Below, in pieces: positions 3,627-10,748 of a stretch of DNA of 13,411 nt (position 1 is its first letter; each line of letters begins with the position of its first letter). The notes under the pieces are model-generated. The model worked only from the letters and a program-made list of their open reading frames with translations. It was not told the origin of the DNA and did no database searches. Origin of the DNA: a virus. Both the position numbers and the translations under genes were made by a program. The DNA lies in the UHGV virus genome UHGV-0394570; one strand, 5' to 3'.

Positions 3627-3703
3627 TGGCGCGTTGTACTGGATTCGAACCAGTGACCGATTGCTTAGAAGGCAATTGCTCTGTCCGGCTGAGCTAACAA
3701 CGC
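3627..3703 (-). tRNA. argO: tRNA-Arg (anticodon UCU, reads AGA/AGG)
   Basis: Minus-strand sequence GCGTTGTTAGCTCAGCCGGACAGAGCAATTGCCTTCTAAGCAATCGGTCACTGGTTCGAATCCAGTACAACGCGCCA: 7-bp acceptor stem, anticodon loop CTTCTAA, T-loop TTCGAAT, encoded CCA. Third gene of an ileZ-argN-argO-like triad. Confidence 0.85.
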
Positions 3704-3716
3704 AGGGTACGGATAA

Positions 3717-3793
3717 TGGACCGCCATCGAGGACTCGAACCCCGCGCAACCAGCTTCGAAGGCTGGCGCTCTATCCCGATGAGCTAATGGCGG
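3717..3793 (-). tRNA. argN: tRNA-Arg-like (anticodon read as UCG); unusual C1-G72 and U73
   Basis: Minus-strand sequence CCGCCATTAGCTCATCGGGATAGAGCGCCAGCCTTCGAAGCTGGTTGCGCGGGGTTCGAGTCCTCGATGGCGGTCCA: perfect 5-bp anticodon stem CCAGC/GCTGG, loop CTTCGAA, T-loop TTCGAGT, encoded CCA. Isotype by anticodon only. Confidence 0.7.
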
Positions 3794-3800
3794 TATGTGA

Positions 3801-3876
3801 TGGTGGCCCTTGCTGGATTTGAACCAGCGACCTGGCGATTATGAGTCGCTCGCTCTCACCACTGAGCTAAAGGGCC
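3801..3876 (-). tRNA. ileZ: tRNA with CAU anticodon; closely resembles E. coli tRNA-Ile2 (lysidine, reads AUA)
   Basis: Minus-strand sequence GGCCCTTTAGCTCAGTGGTGAGAGCGAGCGACTCATAATCGCCAGGTCGCTGGTTCAAATCCAGCAAGGGCCACCA: anticodon loop CTCATAA, encoded CCA. Strong resemblance to recalled ileX-type tRNA-Ile2 rather than elongator or initiator Met. Confidence 0.85.
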
Positions 3877-3916: not shown

Positions 3917-4975
3917 TCATCCGTTCTGACTGATAAAATCCTGAACTTCCCTGACTGTCTGCTCAAAACGTCCGGTCTCCAGCTCAACACCAATCGCCCG
4001 ACGTCCCAGTGACAGCGCCGCTTTTACCGTTGAACCTGACCCCATGAAAAAATCTGCAATCAGGTCACCCGGACGACTGCTCGCACTGATTATCTGCCGC
4101 AGCATTTCTGCCGGTTTTTCGCACGGATGTTTCCCGGGATAGTACTGCACCGGTTTATGCGTCCACACATCCGTGTACGGCACCTGCGCCGTCACGCCAA
4201 AATACCGCCGCAGATGCTTATATTCACTCTGCAGTTCCGCATACTGCCGGTTCAGTGAAGTATACGTCTCCAGCAGCTGGTGGTGGGGCTTTTCCAGTTC
4301 ACCCCGCTGATGCTTCTCTTCTGCCACCCGGGCAAACAGCGCCTGTAATTTCAGATAATCACTTTCGTCCGGTAGCTGCCACTGACTGGCACTGAACCAG
4401 TGCGACACCATGTTTTTCTTTCCTGTGGCATCCACTATCTGTTTTGCCGTTATCCCCAGGGCAGCGCGCGCATCACGAAAGTAAGCAATCAGCGGGGCCA
4501 TCACATGCTGTTTCAGTGCCCTGCCCTTCGCCTCATACCCGGCATCTTTCGGACGATACGGCCCCTGATAATGTTCCGCGAACAGAATGCGCTCTGTGGC
4601 GGGGAAATACGCCCTCAGGCTTTCCTTGTTGCACCCGTTCCAGCGTCCGGACGGCTTCGCCCAGATGATATGGTTCAGTACGTTAAACCGCTCACGCATC
4701 ATGATTTCGGTGTCAGATGCCAGGCGATGCCCACAGAACAGGTAAAGGCTTCCGGCAGGTTTTAACACCCGCCAGAACTGCGCCAGACACTGGTCCAGCC
4801 ACTTCAGGTAATCATCGTCGCCCTTCCACTGGTTATCCCAGCCCTCAGGCTTCACTTTAAAGTACGGCGGGTCCGTGACTATCAGGTCAACAGAATTTTC
4901 GGGTAACGACCGGATAAATTCCAGGCAGTCGGCGTTGATTAACTCACAACTGGATATTTTTACAGTATTAAGCAT
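3917..4975 (-). CDS. DNA methyltransferase, beta-class (N6-adenine or N4-cytosine), 352 aa
   Basis: ATG at 4975; stop TGA 3917-3919. DPPY motif near the N-terminus (LIVTDPPYF) and AdoMet-binding FxGxG motif near the C-terminus (DFFMGSGST). No adjacent restriction endonuclease gene visible. Confidence 0.85.
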   Translation of the reverse strand: MLNTVKISSCELINADCLEFIRSLPENSVDLIVTDPPYFKVKPEGWDNQWKGDDDYLKWLDQCLAQFWRVLKPAGSLYLFCGHRLASDTEIMMRERFNVLNHIIWAKPSGRWNGCNKESLRAYFPATERILFAEHYQGPYRPKDAGYEAKGRALKQHVMAPLIAYFRDARAALGITAKQIVDATGKKNMVSHWFSASQWQLPDESDYLKLQALFARVAEEKHQRGELEKPHHQLLETYTSLNRQYAELQSEYKHLRRYFGVTAQVPYTDVWTHKPVQYYPGKHPCEKPAEMLRQIISASSRPGDLIADFFMGSGSTVKAALSLGRRAIGVELETGRFEQTVREVQDFISQNG

Positions 4976-5566: not shown

Positions 5567-6109
5567 TTATCGAAATGAATCATGCATAGGTACATAAAGC
5601 ATGTGTTCAGCCACGGCTAACCAACCTGCAATACGTTTCTCACATGTGCTGAAGCACCATTCCGGGTGAGTACGATTTAAACATTCTGCCATTTTTCTCT
5701 TACTCATTCCCCGTCCTTCGTACCTTTGCCGGAGAATATTGATTAGCCCGGGATATTCCCCAAGCACCTCACTGATGACGCGATCAATAATCAACGCCTC
5801 TGTGTCTGTACAATGTGACAACCAGCTCTTCTGCTTCCCTCTGGTCATATCCCGAAAAAATGCCTCAAGTTCCGGTTTATCCAGCCCGGATTTCTTCATT
5901 CTGCGTAAAACCTCATTAACTGCTGTTTTTGTCAGCTTCTTCGAAACCAGTAACCGGTTAAACATATTTCCGGATTTACCCCCACCTATATACGACCACC
6001 GCCCCCACATCCGTAATTTCCCCTGGATCCAGACTGCTTCCAGCGTGTTCAGGCGTAAATGTTCGCCGCTTTTGCCTGTAATTTCCGGATATATCATATT
6101 TACGCTCAC
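5567..6109 (-). CDS. Putative late-gene antiterminator (Q-like)
   Basis: Basic 176-180 aa protein placed between rusA and a promoter/terminator pair, the canonical Q position in lambdoid phages. Track start is GTG at 6109 overlapping the rusA stop (GTGA); alternative ATG at 6097. Family assignment rests on position and recalled resemblance to Q21-type proteins, not on a verified motif. Confidence 0.55.
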   Translation of the reverse strand: MSVNMIYPEITGKSGEHLRLNTLEAVWIQGKLRMWGRWSYIGGGKSGNMFNRLLVSKKLTKTAVNEVLRRMKKSGLDKPELEAFFRDMTRGKQKSWLSHCTDTEALIIDRVISEVLGEYPGLINILRQRYEGRGMSKRKMAECLNRTHPEWCFSTCEKRIAGWLAVAEHMLYVPMHDSFR

Positions 6110-8386: not shown

Positions 8387-8542
8387 TTACTTCTCAGATT
8401 CGTAGTCTACGAAGACAGCGACCTCCGTCTGGCCGGTTCGGATTCGTACCTCGCAGAGGTCTTTCCTCGTTACCAGTGCCGTCACTATGACGGTTAAACA
8501 GATGACAATCAGGGCGATTAACATCGCCTTTTGCTGCTTCAT
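8387..8542 (-). CDS. hok: Hok/Gef-family type I toxin, 51 aa
   Basis: MKQQKAMLIALIVICLTVIVTALVTRKDLCEVRIRTGQTEVAVFVDYESEK: N-terminal TM helix and conserved Cys pattern, near-identical to recalled HokD/RelF. The track ORF (8599) is an in-frame 19-codon upstream extension from another ATG. Confidence 0.85.
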   Translation of the reverse strand: MKQQKAMLIALIVICLTVIVTALVTRKDLCEVRIRTGQTEVAVFVDYESEK

Positions 8543-8787
8543 AGCCTGCTTCTCCTTGCCTTTCGGCACGTAAGAGGCTAACCTACATGTGCAAAGCATG
8601 AAATTGGCCTCAGATTAATGTTAAGCGTCTTGCCGGACGCGTAATGTTAACTGGGGCTTTTCTCTGTCTGCCTTACGGTGGCATGCCCGAGGCAGACAGC
8701 CTCAAGCACCCGCAGCAATTCTACTTAACTCTCGCTTTACCGCAAACCGTTTTTACCCGATATGGGAATCCCCATATCGCAATGAAA

Positions 8788-8892
8788 TCAGTTTCCCATC
8801 CGATCCATCAAAAACACAACCAGGCAGTAAACGCCCACAACAGAAATAACGGCCAGCGCGCCTTCCATTGCCAGTGAAAGATCATCCGACAT
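8788..8892 (-). CDS. Unannotated hydrophobic micro-ORF, 34 aa (single predicted TM)
   Basis: ATG at 8892-8890 preceded by AAAGGAGGG (4-5 nt spacing); stop TGA 8788-8790. Translation MSDDLSLAMEGALAVISVVGVYCLVVFLMDRMGN. Below the ORF-track length cutoff. Confidence 0.4.
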   Translation of the reverse strand: MSDDLSLAMEGALAVISVVGVYCLVVFLMDRMGN

Positions 8893-8927
8893 ATTCCCTC
8901 CTTTGGTGTGAATCCCGGCGAACGTTT

Positions 8928-9011
8928 TTACTCCCACCGACAAATAACATATACTAAAAAAGCGATAGCCATAGCAACGCCTGTAATTGCAAAGGCTTCA
9001 GGCCAGTTCAT
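8928..9011 (-). CDS. Unannotated hydrophobic micro-ORF, 27 aa, translationally coupled to the upstream 101-aa ORF
   Basis: ATG at 9011-9009 overlaps the TGA stop (9008-9010) of the upstream ORF (ATGA overlap); stop TAA 8928-8930. Translation MNWPEAFAITGVAMAIAFLVYVICRWE. Confidence 0.4.
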   Translation of the reverse strand: MNWPEAFAITGVAMAIAFLVYVICRWE

Positions 9012-9313
9012 CGTAAAACATCCTCCACACTTATCAGTCCATTTCGCTTCAGATAGTCCATCGCCTTATCCGGTAATTTGCAGTCCAACTTCGCTTTCTT
9101 CAGATGCCTGGCTAACTGCTTTACCAGCATGGTTAACTCGTAGACCGAACGTTGATACTCCACTGGTTTGTATTCATGCAATTTACCAACTGGCTCTGCT
9201 TCCAGCAATGCCAGTGCAATCCGTGCCAGTTCCATTTGTTCGCCACGGGTAAGTCCGTTATCAAGCGGATTTTTAATGAATAATTCGATACGTTCTTTGG
9301 TAATAGAATTCAT
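9008..9313 (-). CDS. Hypothetical protein, 101 aa
   Basis: ATG at 9313 with SD AAGGTG, 1 nt after the TAG stop of the upstream 63-aa ORF. Translation MNSITKERIELFIKNPLDNGLTRGEQMELARIALALLEAEPVGKLHEYKPVEYQRSVYELTMLVKQLARHLKKAKLDCKLPDKAMDYLKRNGLISVEDVLR. No family recognised. Confidence 0.55.
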   Translation of the reverse strand: MNSITKERIELFIKNPLDNGLTRGEQMELARIALALLEAEPVGKLHEYKPVEYQRSVYELTMLVKQLARHLKKAKLDCKLPDKAMDYLKRNGLISVEDVLR

Positions 9314-9563: not shown

Positions 9564-9986
9564 TCACAGTACCGCCTCCTGAAAATTACCCTGATAGAAA
9601 GCCAGTACACGCCGCATAGCTTCGCTCTTCCGGCACTCGCGACAGATTATGTTCTGTCGTCTGTTGTAACGACGTATTTCTCCGTCTGGTAATGACCAGA
9701 TAAGCTCAGGATCAACCACAACCGGTTTCTTCACCTTTGCCCTTGATAGTTTTTTGCGGGCGTTTTGCCATTCTTTACGCGCCTGCTCAGACGGGAATAA
9801 TCCGTAGCCTGAATTGTAAACATCACCACTGGCAACCAATTCTCTGGCGAGAGTGCTTATGTAATACCTTGATGCACCGGTTTTAGCCTCCAGAGCCCGT
9901 AACGTCTCGCGACCGCTCAGACGTACAAGTTCAACAACCTGCCCTTTAATTTTTTCCCGCTCTTCTGGTGTAAATACTTTTTCCAT
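9564..9986 (-). CDS. Hypothetical protein, 140 aa, with probable N-terminal winged-HTH-like segment
   Basis: ATG at 9986 with SD GGAGG; track start is TTG 10001. Translation MEKVFTPEEREKIKGQVVELVRLSGRETLRALEAKTGASRYYISTLARELVASGDVYNSGYG...; basic C-terminal half. Confidence 0.55.
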   Translation of the reverse strand: MEKVFTPEEREKIKGQVVELVRLSGRETLRALEAKTGASRYYISTLARELVASGDVYNSGYGLFPSEQARKEWQNARKKLSRAKVKKPVVVDPELIWSLPDGEIRRYNRRQNIICRECRKSEAMRRVLAFYQGNFQEAVL

Positions 9987-10001
9987 AGGTGCCTCCGGCA
10001 A

Positions 10002-10727
10002 TCACTTTTCCGACACAATACGACTGGAGGAATCGAAAATCTGTCGAACAATATCCCGGTGCGTGTTCAGCTCCCGCAGCGCAGCACAGACGCGTTCCCA
10101 CTTCTGGACATCACTTTTCGCCCGGCGCAGCTCGCGGTTAGCCACATGCAGCGATGGTAGAATCAGGTCATCTGCTTTCATTTCGCTGAGCGATGGCTGT
10201 AACTTCACAATGTCTTCCACGATTTCTGTTTTCATTTCCTCCTGTGCCGTCGTTTCCTGGACTGGTAACGCAACACCTGCTGGCTGAGGAAAGGCTTTAC
10301 CCTCCGTTTCCGCTACGGATGCAGCTTCCGGCTCTGCCGGTAAATCAGCGCCCGGTATGCAGTAACGAAATTTACCGCCCTGATTCACGCGAATCAGACG
10401 CCCTTTGCTGATTGCCATCGCCAGCGATGAATTCGCCCGGCGGGAGGTAATTCCGAACATCAGTGCCAGTTCATCCGCCGTTTGTGGGCCATGTTGTTCA
10501 ATCGCCTCTGTCAGCATTTGCGCAGTCACTTTCGGTACCGGTGACACCGATTCACTTTCACCAGCCTGAGTCAGCCACCACATCGACCCCTTGTTATCCG
10601 CTTCACCGCGGCGCTTCAGTTTCCACAGTTCGTTGACCGCCTCTTCACGGCTGATTCCAAGGCGCGATGCCACTACCTGTGAAGAGGCTTTTTTCAGTGC
10701 TTTCAGTGCGTCAAATACGGTTTCCAT
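10002..10727 (-). CDS. Hypothetical prophage protein (DUF1627-like by recollection) with two HTH-like repeats, 241 aa
   Basis: ATG at 10727 with SD GGAGGACG; track start TTG 10745. Two similar segments ([25 protein letters not shown] and [29 protein letters not shown]) followed by an acidic linker. Confidence 0.55.
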
Positions 10728-10748
10728 TAAAACGTCCTCCGACAAAAA

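Follow-up and report, generated by a model that had tools for sequence, protein, structure and literature searches.

The question raised by this locus is whether two very short hydrophobic reading frames, found immediately upstream of a hok toxin gene in the virus genome UHGV-0394570, are genes at all and, if they are, of which kind. The window, that is, the whole stretch of 13,411 nucleotides (nt) analysed here, carries both on its minus strand, and the initial annotation had described them as small open reading frames (ORFs) that have translation signals, each coding for a single transmembrane helix. We call them ORF-A (27 amino acids, aa) and ORF-B (34 aa). The comparison with related sequences supports the view that both are real genes, with frame, start and Shine-Dalgarno (SD) sequence conserved and changes that are mostly synonymous or conservative, as the initial annotation had proposed to check by tblastn across related prophages. 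The features concerned are these.

8928-9011, minus strand: ORF-A, a micro-gene of 84 nt coding for 27 aa (MNWPEAFAITGVAMAIAFLVYVICRWE)
9021-9026, minus strand: SD sequence GGAGGA of ORF-A, within the final codons of a 101-aa gene, 9 nt before the ATG
8788-8892, minus strand: ORF-B, a micro-gene coding for 34 aa (MSDDLSLAMEGALAVISVVGVYCLVVFLMDRMGN)
8896-8904, minus strand: SD sequence AAAGGAGGG of ORF-B, read from the sequence

The coordinates first proposed for both frames were right, and the reported overlap of the ORF-A start with the stop of the 101-aa gene was seen at 9011-9008, where the ATG (9011-9009) shares letters with the TGA (9010-9008) to give ATGA. The signal said to precede ORF-B is the SD at 8904-8896, kept in all the ORF-B loci inspected. 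Each peptide has one strongly hydrophobic window (Kyte-Doolittle mean of the best 17 residues of 2.48 in ORF-A and 2.80 in ORF-B), from which the single transmembrane helix already proposed is predicted for both; being a small hydrophobic membrane peptide is also a trait of type I toxin-antitoxin (TA) systems, and both ORFs show it. An open frame by itself says little at this size, because 45% of the shuffles of the 281-nt stretch contained an ATG-initiated ORF of at least 27 aa. The proportion fell to 8% when an SD was required as well, and to 0.7%, for a single ORF, when in addition the grand average of hydropathy (GRAVY) had to exceed 1. Actually, 22 ORFs of at least 20 aa are found within 1.4 kb. 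The case for gene status therefore rests on the comparison with related sequences, which is stronger evidence than the open frame alone. Two ORFs that overlap the pair on the plus strand (77 aa at 8644-8877 and 114 aa at 8908-9252) were considered and rejected as genes; the antisense frames of ORF-A have stops in 15 to 29 of 52 family members.

ORF-A belongs to a widely distributed family. A tblastn search of 50,697 phage records found similar ORFs, 52-69% identical, in 99 of them, with E. coli, Shigella, Salmonella and Klebsiella as hosts and including 933W, VT2-Sakai, many Shiga toxin (Stx) phages of the Stx1 and Stx2 types, BP-4795, Shigella POCJ13, Klebsiella prophages and the P1-like Salmonella phage SJ46. 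Four pattern scans of IMG/VR gave up to 196 related stretches, and from these and the phage records we obtained 93 distinct ORF-A contexts and 44 distinct peptides of 21-29 aa. The start overlapped the stop of the preceding ORF in 92 of the 93 contexts (74 as ATGA, 18 as TAATG or TGATG), whatever the preceding gene, and an SD was present before it in 90. When four records were opened, the match started exactly at the end of the annotated upstream gene, with a stop overlap of 4 nt or 1 nt. The preceding proteins are mutually unrelated: many end in the DUF551 motif WMPLPEPPQEVRQ, and others are L0139 of 933W, DUF977-like proteins or proteins of Klebsiella or P1 type. Because they are unrelated and many of them have a C-terminal ..EV(K/R/N/Q), whose codons spell the SD GGAGGTG, ORF-A travels as a portable module of SD, overlapping start and ORF that is appended to different genes. 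The ORF-A of the window has the same arrangement, with its start over the stop and its SD inside the preceding gene, and its peptide has all the family traits (MxWP[E/T/D]AF head, G11, A13/A15/A17, a basic residue past the helix and a length within 21-29 aa).

The family does not seem to be broadly chromosomal, since a scan of contigs with one genome per species gave only two matches, a weak one of 15 residues and a 431-bp contig assigned to 'Xanthomonas pisi' (L089, NZ_JPLE01000323.1). The latter encodes a 933W-type ORF-A, 59% identical to that of the window, and is probably enterobacterial phage contamination of the Xanthomonas assembly. A tblastn search of plasmids with a 24-aa ORF-A variant found none at E values up to 1, the query being too short for the 7.3-Gb database to be informative on absence. 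Phage lambda has no homolog of ORF-A or ORF-B, its orf28 being an unrelated acidic peptide.

Purifying selection at the protein level across homologs, as expected of small membrane proteins, was found for both ORFs. For ORF-A, the ratio of nonsynonymous to synonymous differences per site (pN/pS) in 28 distinct alleles of 27 codons was 0.345 in the coding frame and 0.38 in codons 9-27, which are outside the search motif, and four of the five alternative frames gave values of 0.9-2.2. When the window allele is compared with other subfamilies, pS reaches 0.72-0.84, i.e. synonymous sites are near saturation, with pN at 0.20-0.37. Of the residues kept beyond the search motif in the 44 peptides, G11 is present in 43, A13 in 36, A15 in 39 and A17 in 37, and the basic residue after the helix is conserved in the family. 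A less biased sample came from 80 loci fetched by the DUF551 protein alone, blind to ORF-A, which gave 24 distinct contexts: 14 with an intact ORF-A at the overlapping ATG, one with a frameshifted copy, 8 with a different overlapping gene and 2 without an overlapping ATG. Among those with ORF-A-homologous DNA, ORF-A was intact in 14 of 15.

All of this points to ORF-A as a conserved phage gene family that is almost never annotated. It was unannotated in every phage and RefSeq record inspected, including the four phage records opened, and within a collection of 15 billion proteins the exact sequence of the window was absent and a near variant was annotated on 5 contigs only. The initial annotation had taken both frames as missed by annotation, which holds for ORF-A and fails for ORF-B. 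The latter is called as a hypothetical protein by the Prokaryotic Genome Annotation Pipeline (PGAP), WP_077779993.1, in NZ_CP091840 (a 99.4% identical record); in prophages of Shiga toxin-producing E. coli (STEC) it is WP_001278450.1 and in the Sakai prophage Sp6 it is ECs_5710, also a hypothetical protein. Its exact sequence is found on 172 contigs, and STEC variants on ~1000 or more.

Furthermore, ORF-B has a published translation record. XECs145, listed in S2 Table of Hücker et al. 2017 as MCYLSVGVKTFAGIHTKGGN-MSDDISLAMEGALAVIAVVGVYCLVVFLMDRLGN, is ORF-B in a longer frame, and was predicted there to be an inner-membrane protein with one transmembrane helix (PMC5597208). In lysogeny broth (LB) its values were 79.1 reads per kilobase per million (RPKM) for RNA and 346.1 for ribosome profiling (RIBOseq), with a ribosome coverage value (RCV) of 4.35 and a coverage of 0.99; in brain heart infusion (BHI) the corresponding figures were 121.3, 150.1, 1.14 and 0.84, and under cold/osmotic stress 73.3, 1.1, 0.01 and 0.37 (PMC5597208). 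These data from uninduced Sakai show that ORF-B is translated in lysogens, so that ribosome profiling, one of the checks suggested at the outset, came out positive for ORF-B, with ORF-A outside the 30-aa cut-off of the study. XECs145/ECs_5710 and ORF-B are one gene (identity at 31 of 34 residues, ~91%), and the Sakai copy likewise follows a 27-aa ORF-A and lies 77 nt before the hok mRNA start. It differs in the call, XECs145 being the longest frame, with 54 aa and a start other than ATG that lies 60 nt upstream (PMC5597208), whereas both PGAP and conservation favour the SD-preceded ATG. The gene upstream of ORF-A differs as well, a full DUF551 protein in Sakai versus the 101-aa chimera here.

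Among 15 distinct ORF-B alleles the variable columns fall 9/5/17 by codon position, with 21 synonymous and 17 nonsynonymous changes, the latter mostly conservative (V/I, A/S, I/L, F/L, D/E). Searched in full with HMMER, a set of 1.84 billion representative proteins gave six cluster representatives, all at least 74% identical, and the sole find by tblastn was a divergent unannotated relative of 30 aa, (M)VLVLKCALAITAVMAIYCLAIVLMDRLSD, in mEp460-like phages (~40% identity). ORF-B is a narrow E. coli-prophage ORFan. In mEp460_ev081 this relative (record positions 35611-35703, 695-787 of our locus L248) has a GTG start after AGGAGG, and 43 nt separate it from the hok mRNA start downstream; ORF-A and the palindrome are both missing there. 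Phages Evi and Tritos gave similar matches, which are unannotated too. The idea that ORF-A and ORF-B are tandem paralogs was rejected, with an hhalign probability of 19% that reflects generic transmembrane-helix similarity only.

ORF-B comes in a cassette of ~178 bp (SD, ORF-B and a 22-bp palindrome) placed, in the window and in Sakai, between ORF-A and the hok promoter. Its edges and its palindrome are the following.

8914-8931, minus strand: copy 1 of a direct repeat, GTAAAAACGTTCGCCGGG, spanning the ORF-A stop codon; left cassette edge from the alignment with 933W and AVS0093
8758-8779, no strand: 22-bp palindrome or RNA hairpin, CGATATGGG-GATT-CCCATATCG, at the 3' end of the cassette
8740-8756, minus strand: copy 2 of the direct repeat, GTAAAAACGGTTTGCGG; right cassette edge, running into the hok -35 region

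In 933W, AVS0093 and 689R5 there is no cassette, and AAAACGGTTTGCGGG and the hok promoter come immediately after the ORF-A stop, so that ORF-B shows the presence or absence between adjacent genes of related phages that is a trait of morons. Two copies of a direct repeat of ~18 nt, GTAAAAACG(G)TT(C/T)GC(C/G)GG, flank the insert. The palindrome is conserved in ORF-B loci, with the exception of the mEp460-type locus where it is not present, and in most it is a perfect CGATATGGGAATTCCCATATCG that contains an EcoRI site; the stem is almost invariant, the loop variable, and no U-tract follows. A 66-nt RNA fold at this place is stable, with -24 kcal/mol (z -4.0). The palindrome might serve to bind a protein, to stabilise or process the RNA as a hairpin, or to insulate hok from the early operon. 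A consensus scan of the window and mEp460 found no sigma-70 promoter for ORF-A or ORF-B on the coding (minus) strand, and the cassette may ride on the early operon transcript. The expression of XECs145 in uninduced Sakai hints at prophage-independent transcription, without locating its promoter.

On balance, we lean towards both ORFs being genuine coding micro-genes of the early (nin-region) operon that specify single-pass accessory peptides of the inner membrane, of a modulator or exclusion type, not part of hok/sok and probably not depolarising. Frames, signals, conservation, purifying selection and modular context were observed for both. The rightward early operon of the prophage would carry the two micro-genes. 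Translation of ORF-A would be coupled, with ribosomes that end the preceding gene at its TGA restarting at the overlapping ATG with the aid of the SD in the last upstream codons, and its SD-plus-ORF module is joined to the 3' ends of many unrelated phage genes (DUF551/Ea22-type genes, 933W L0139 and genes of Klebsiella and P1-like phages). ORF-B is a separate cassette, inserted between ORF-A and the hok promoter and provided with its own strong SD. An N-out/C-in topology is predicted for both peptides because the N-tails are acidic (E5 in ORF-A; D3, D4 and E10 in ORF-B) and a basic residue follows the helix, on the basis of the positive-inside rule. They may be accessory modulators or factors of an exclusion type that bind, helix to helix, an inner-membrane protein of the host or the phage; helix packing is proposed for ORF-A because of its conserved small-residue face (G11/A15 and A13/A17), and for ORF-B because Y22-C23 and L28 are invariant and the MDR that follows the helix is conserved. 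In PHROGs the micro-ORFs have weak matches to families of unknown function.

Several points weigh against this reading. That the peptides insert into the membrane, which way they are oriented and that they act by helix packing are all predictions, and neither ORF had a match above noise to the curated families of Pfam, NCBIfam and PADLOC. The retrieval of ORF-A by peptide motif and tblastn biases the sample to protein-level conservation, and the DUF551-anchored sample is small. One antisense frame of the ORF-A alleles also gave a low pN/pS, of 0.43, but it has stops in 15 of 52 sequences. Two disrupted ORF-A copies were seen (L004 and L296), both with a 1-nt deletion in codon 2, which may be a sequencing error, recurrent inactivation or a dispensable gene, or something else. 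As for the published translation, the XECs145 footprints were assigned to an ORF of 162 nt, of which 60 nt precede the ORF-B ATG (PMC5597208), and the assignment of reads is ambiguous because the module is multi-copy in Sakai-like genomes; ORF-A, with 27 aa, fell outside the scope of that work because of the 30-aa cut-off. The two deletions (L004 at ~1734 on the minus strand and L296 at ~788 on the plus strand) are in different subfamilies with a like lesion, ATGAnCTGG to ATGACTGG, that leaves the WPEAF frame intact otherwise but no longer in phase with the ATG.

A more specific version is possible, and we put it forward only tentatively: ORF-A could represent an undescribed and widespread class of phage micro-proteins that targets one conserved inner-membrane protein of the Enterobacteriaceae, for exclusion or host takeover. 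The class would be recognised by the MxWPEAF head, the G/A packing face and the portable tail of SD, ATGA and ORF in lambdoid, P1-like and Klebsiella phages. In a rarer variant, ORF-B, at its fixed distance from the prophage hok, would modulate the Hok toxin at the protein level.

The proximity to hok has to be weighed here, and the features involved are as follows.

8387-8711, minus strand: hok/sok unit, with the hok mRNA leader and sok at 8537-8711, the mok/hok ORF at 8387-8599 and hok at 8387-8542
8718-8745, minus strand: putative hok promoter TTGCGG-16 nt-TAGAAT, read from the sequence, which separates the micro-ORFs from hok/sok

The ORF at 8387-8599 matches Pfam HOK_GEF (9.8e-23) and the leader Rfam RF01794 (117 bits). 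Rfam places the hok/sok unit at 8537-8711 and found no RNA family at 8712-9011, and therefore both micro-ORFs lie upstream of the hok promoter, whose region is 93% identical to the sokW/hokW locus of 933W. For ORF-A, the proximity to hok turned out to be incidental. ORF-B and hok are both downstream in 25 of its 93 contexts, hok without ORF-B in 12 and neither in 49, the latter including a P1-like operon, the int-proximal end of Klebsiella prophages and, in Stx2a_WGPS2, the exo-xis/int-proximal region; in the other 7 there is ORF-B with no hok detected (in several the fetched DNA ends early, or hok is lost or truncated). ORF-B itself might be a functional part of the prophage hok/sok, either as a membrane peptide that modulates Hok or, together with the palindrome, by insulating the hok promoter from early-operon read-through, and we consider this quite unlikely. 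It would fit with the constant spacing between the ORF-B stop and the hok mRNA 5' motif after it (77 nt as a rule), found in 28 of 30 distinct contexts long enough to judge, with the divergent mEp460-type ORF-B (~40% identity, no ORF-A upstream) being 43 nt away from the motif, and with the palindrome lying directly upstream of the hok -35. However, three contexts (L061, L022 and L137) keep an intact ORF-B next to a hok that is truncated or replaced, 933W-type phages have ORF-A and hok with neither ORF-B nor palindrome, and most hok loci are without ORF-B, a query that includes the hok leader matching 4281 genomes, mostly by the leader alone, versus 674 for the module. Linkage alone accounts for an adjacency within 77 nt, so that tight physical linkage is the simplest explanation and a functional link is possible but unsupported. 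In L137 (IMGVR_UViG_2778261453_000015) the hok leader is cut after ...AATCTGAGGCA, with ORF-A, ORF-B and palindrome intact upstream, and the replacement gene resembles a C-5 cytosine DNA methyltransferase (FRVIDLFCGAGG motif).

The neighbourhood of a bona fide membrane toxin, together with peptides that are short, very hydrophobic and single-helix, also suggests that ORF-A and ORF-B could themselves be toxins that depolarise the membrane in the manner of type I toxins or holins, produced upon induction so that the host is shut down or killed, and many small phage membrane proteins are indeed toxic when over-expressed. This is unlikely in our opinion, and nothing was found in support of the host-targeting or membrane-depolarising effector role proposed initially. 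ORF-B is strongly translated in growing, uninduced Sakai (RCV 4.35, RIBOseq RPKM 346), which argues against a potent toxin. The ORFs have strong accessible SDs or coupling, versus the translation-blocking leader and antisense RNA of type I toxins, and Rfam, which covers known families only and leaves an undescribed antisense RNA possible, gave no RNA family between 8712 and 9011, hence no sign of an antisense antitoxin or structured leader. Neither peptide matched HOK_GEF (PF01848) in the Pfam scan or any toxin family. In 49 of the 93 contexts ORF-A is found within ordinary operons, far from lysis or TA genes, and in the window the two micro-ORFs are not at the position of a holin, antiholin or spanin, whose lysis cassette is downstream of Q/pR', being themselves upstream of Q in the nin region, between DUF977/DUF551-type genes and hok. 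This case against a depolarising toxin is an argument and not a test. At the other extreme, one or both ORFs might have no function as peptides, being chance frames or frames where only the act of translation matters, for example by holding ribosomes on the mRNA and so preventing Rho polarity before the downstream genes. The frequency of short ORFs in the 1.4 kb and in the shuffles, the two frameshifted copies of ORF-A and the limitation of ORF-B to E. coli prophages would agree with it. We regard it as very improbable: amino acid sequence, length and start are kept despite the near saturation of synonymous sites, G11, A13, A15, A17 and the C-terminal basic residue are conserved across genera, the replacements in ORF-B are conservative, and the combination of SD and hydrophobicity appeared in just 0.7% of the shuffles.

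The gene order on the minus strand is that of a lambdoid early-right operon, with cII-like, O-like and DnaC-like P genes upstream, and then the following.

10002-10745, minus strand: DUF1627 gene
9564-10001, minus strand: DUF977/Ren-like gene
9008-9313, minus strand: 101-aa gene, directly upstream of ORF-A

The DUF977/Ren-like gene is followed by an 82-aa gene, the 101-aa gene, ORF-A and ORF-B, and downstream of these come hok/sok, a YgiW/BOF gene, DUF968, RusA and Q (5567-6109). The 101-aa gene looks chimeric, with residues 1-52 matching the N-termini or the middle of phrog_60/3323 and residues 52-101 the C-termini of phrog_660/924; the homologous stretch of NZ_CP091840 is labelled by PGAP as a partial DUF551 pseudogene and has IS5 just upstream. 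After Q there is a DNA methylase (3917-4975) and three tRNAs (Met-CAT, Arg-TCG and Arg-TCT, at 3627-3876). Q followed by a DNA methylase and three tRNAs is the layout of Stx phages. At the expected stx site the window has two small ORFs (74 and 68 aa, no Pfam match) and a TerB-domain protein (2433-2936); the prophage is Stx-phage-like yet without stx. A masked run (N, translated as X) at ~2080-2180 of the window breaks a 662-aa ORF (265-2253).

The 252-bp module of this locus is present in 674 of 5426 complete E. coli genomes (about one in eight), at 1469 places and often in several copies, concentrated in Shiga-toxin-type prophages. The peptide strings of the micro-ORFs gave no paper in searchable full text, ORF-B being found only via a supplement. 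As a hypothetical protein and as XECs145, ORF-B is already known, and the interest of the locus stems chiefly from the ORF-A family, a clear case of a conserved phage gene slipping past annotation and Ribo-seq size cut-offs because its 84 nt are under common gene-caller minima and under the 30-aa threshold of the Sakai study. The consistent ATGA or TAATG junction after DUF551/Ea22-type genes provides a simple annotation rule for finding it. ORF-A is found in two accessory regions, nin and exo-xis, the second of which reportedly influences the choice between lysis and lysogeny in lambda and Stx phages (PMC10834534). Should ORF-A bind a host membrane protein, this would be a new and easily testable phage-host interaction.

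Both micro-ORFs belong to a familiar kind, the small single-helix membrane proteins of phage accessory regions, and they can be compared with three known systems. With the Hok/Gef toxins (PF01848) they share being small, hydrophobic, prophage-encoded membrane peptides, with a hok adjacent. They differ in having no Pfam or Rfam match, no antisense RNA found, no mok-like leader ORF and a strong SD or coupling instead of blocked translation; in size, the Hok of the window (8387-8542) has 51 aa versus 27 in ORF-A and 34 in ORF-B. Lambdoid morons resemble ORF-B in being cassettes present or absent between collinear neighbours, that of ORF-B having a short flanking direct repeat, but for ORF-B the consensus scan gave no promoter of its own and the hairpin has no U-tract. 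AcrZ, MgtS, KdpF and CydX of E. coli and MgtR of Salmonella are small single-helix proteins that bind and modulate larger membrane proteins. ORF-A and ORF-B have no sequence similarity to them and are phage accessory genes rather than subunits of host operons, but they are alike in size (~20-50 aa) and in having a single hydrophobic helix, and the AcrZ-type proteins, too, are often encoded within operons or as their last gene and are translationally coupled, and annotation routinely misses them.

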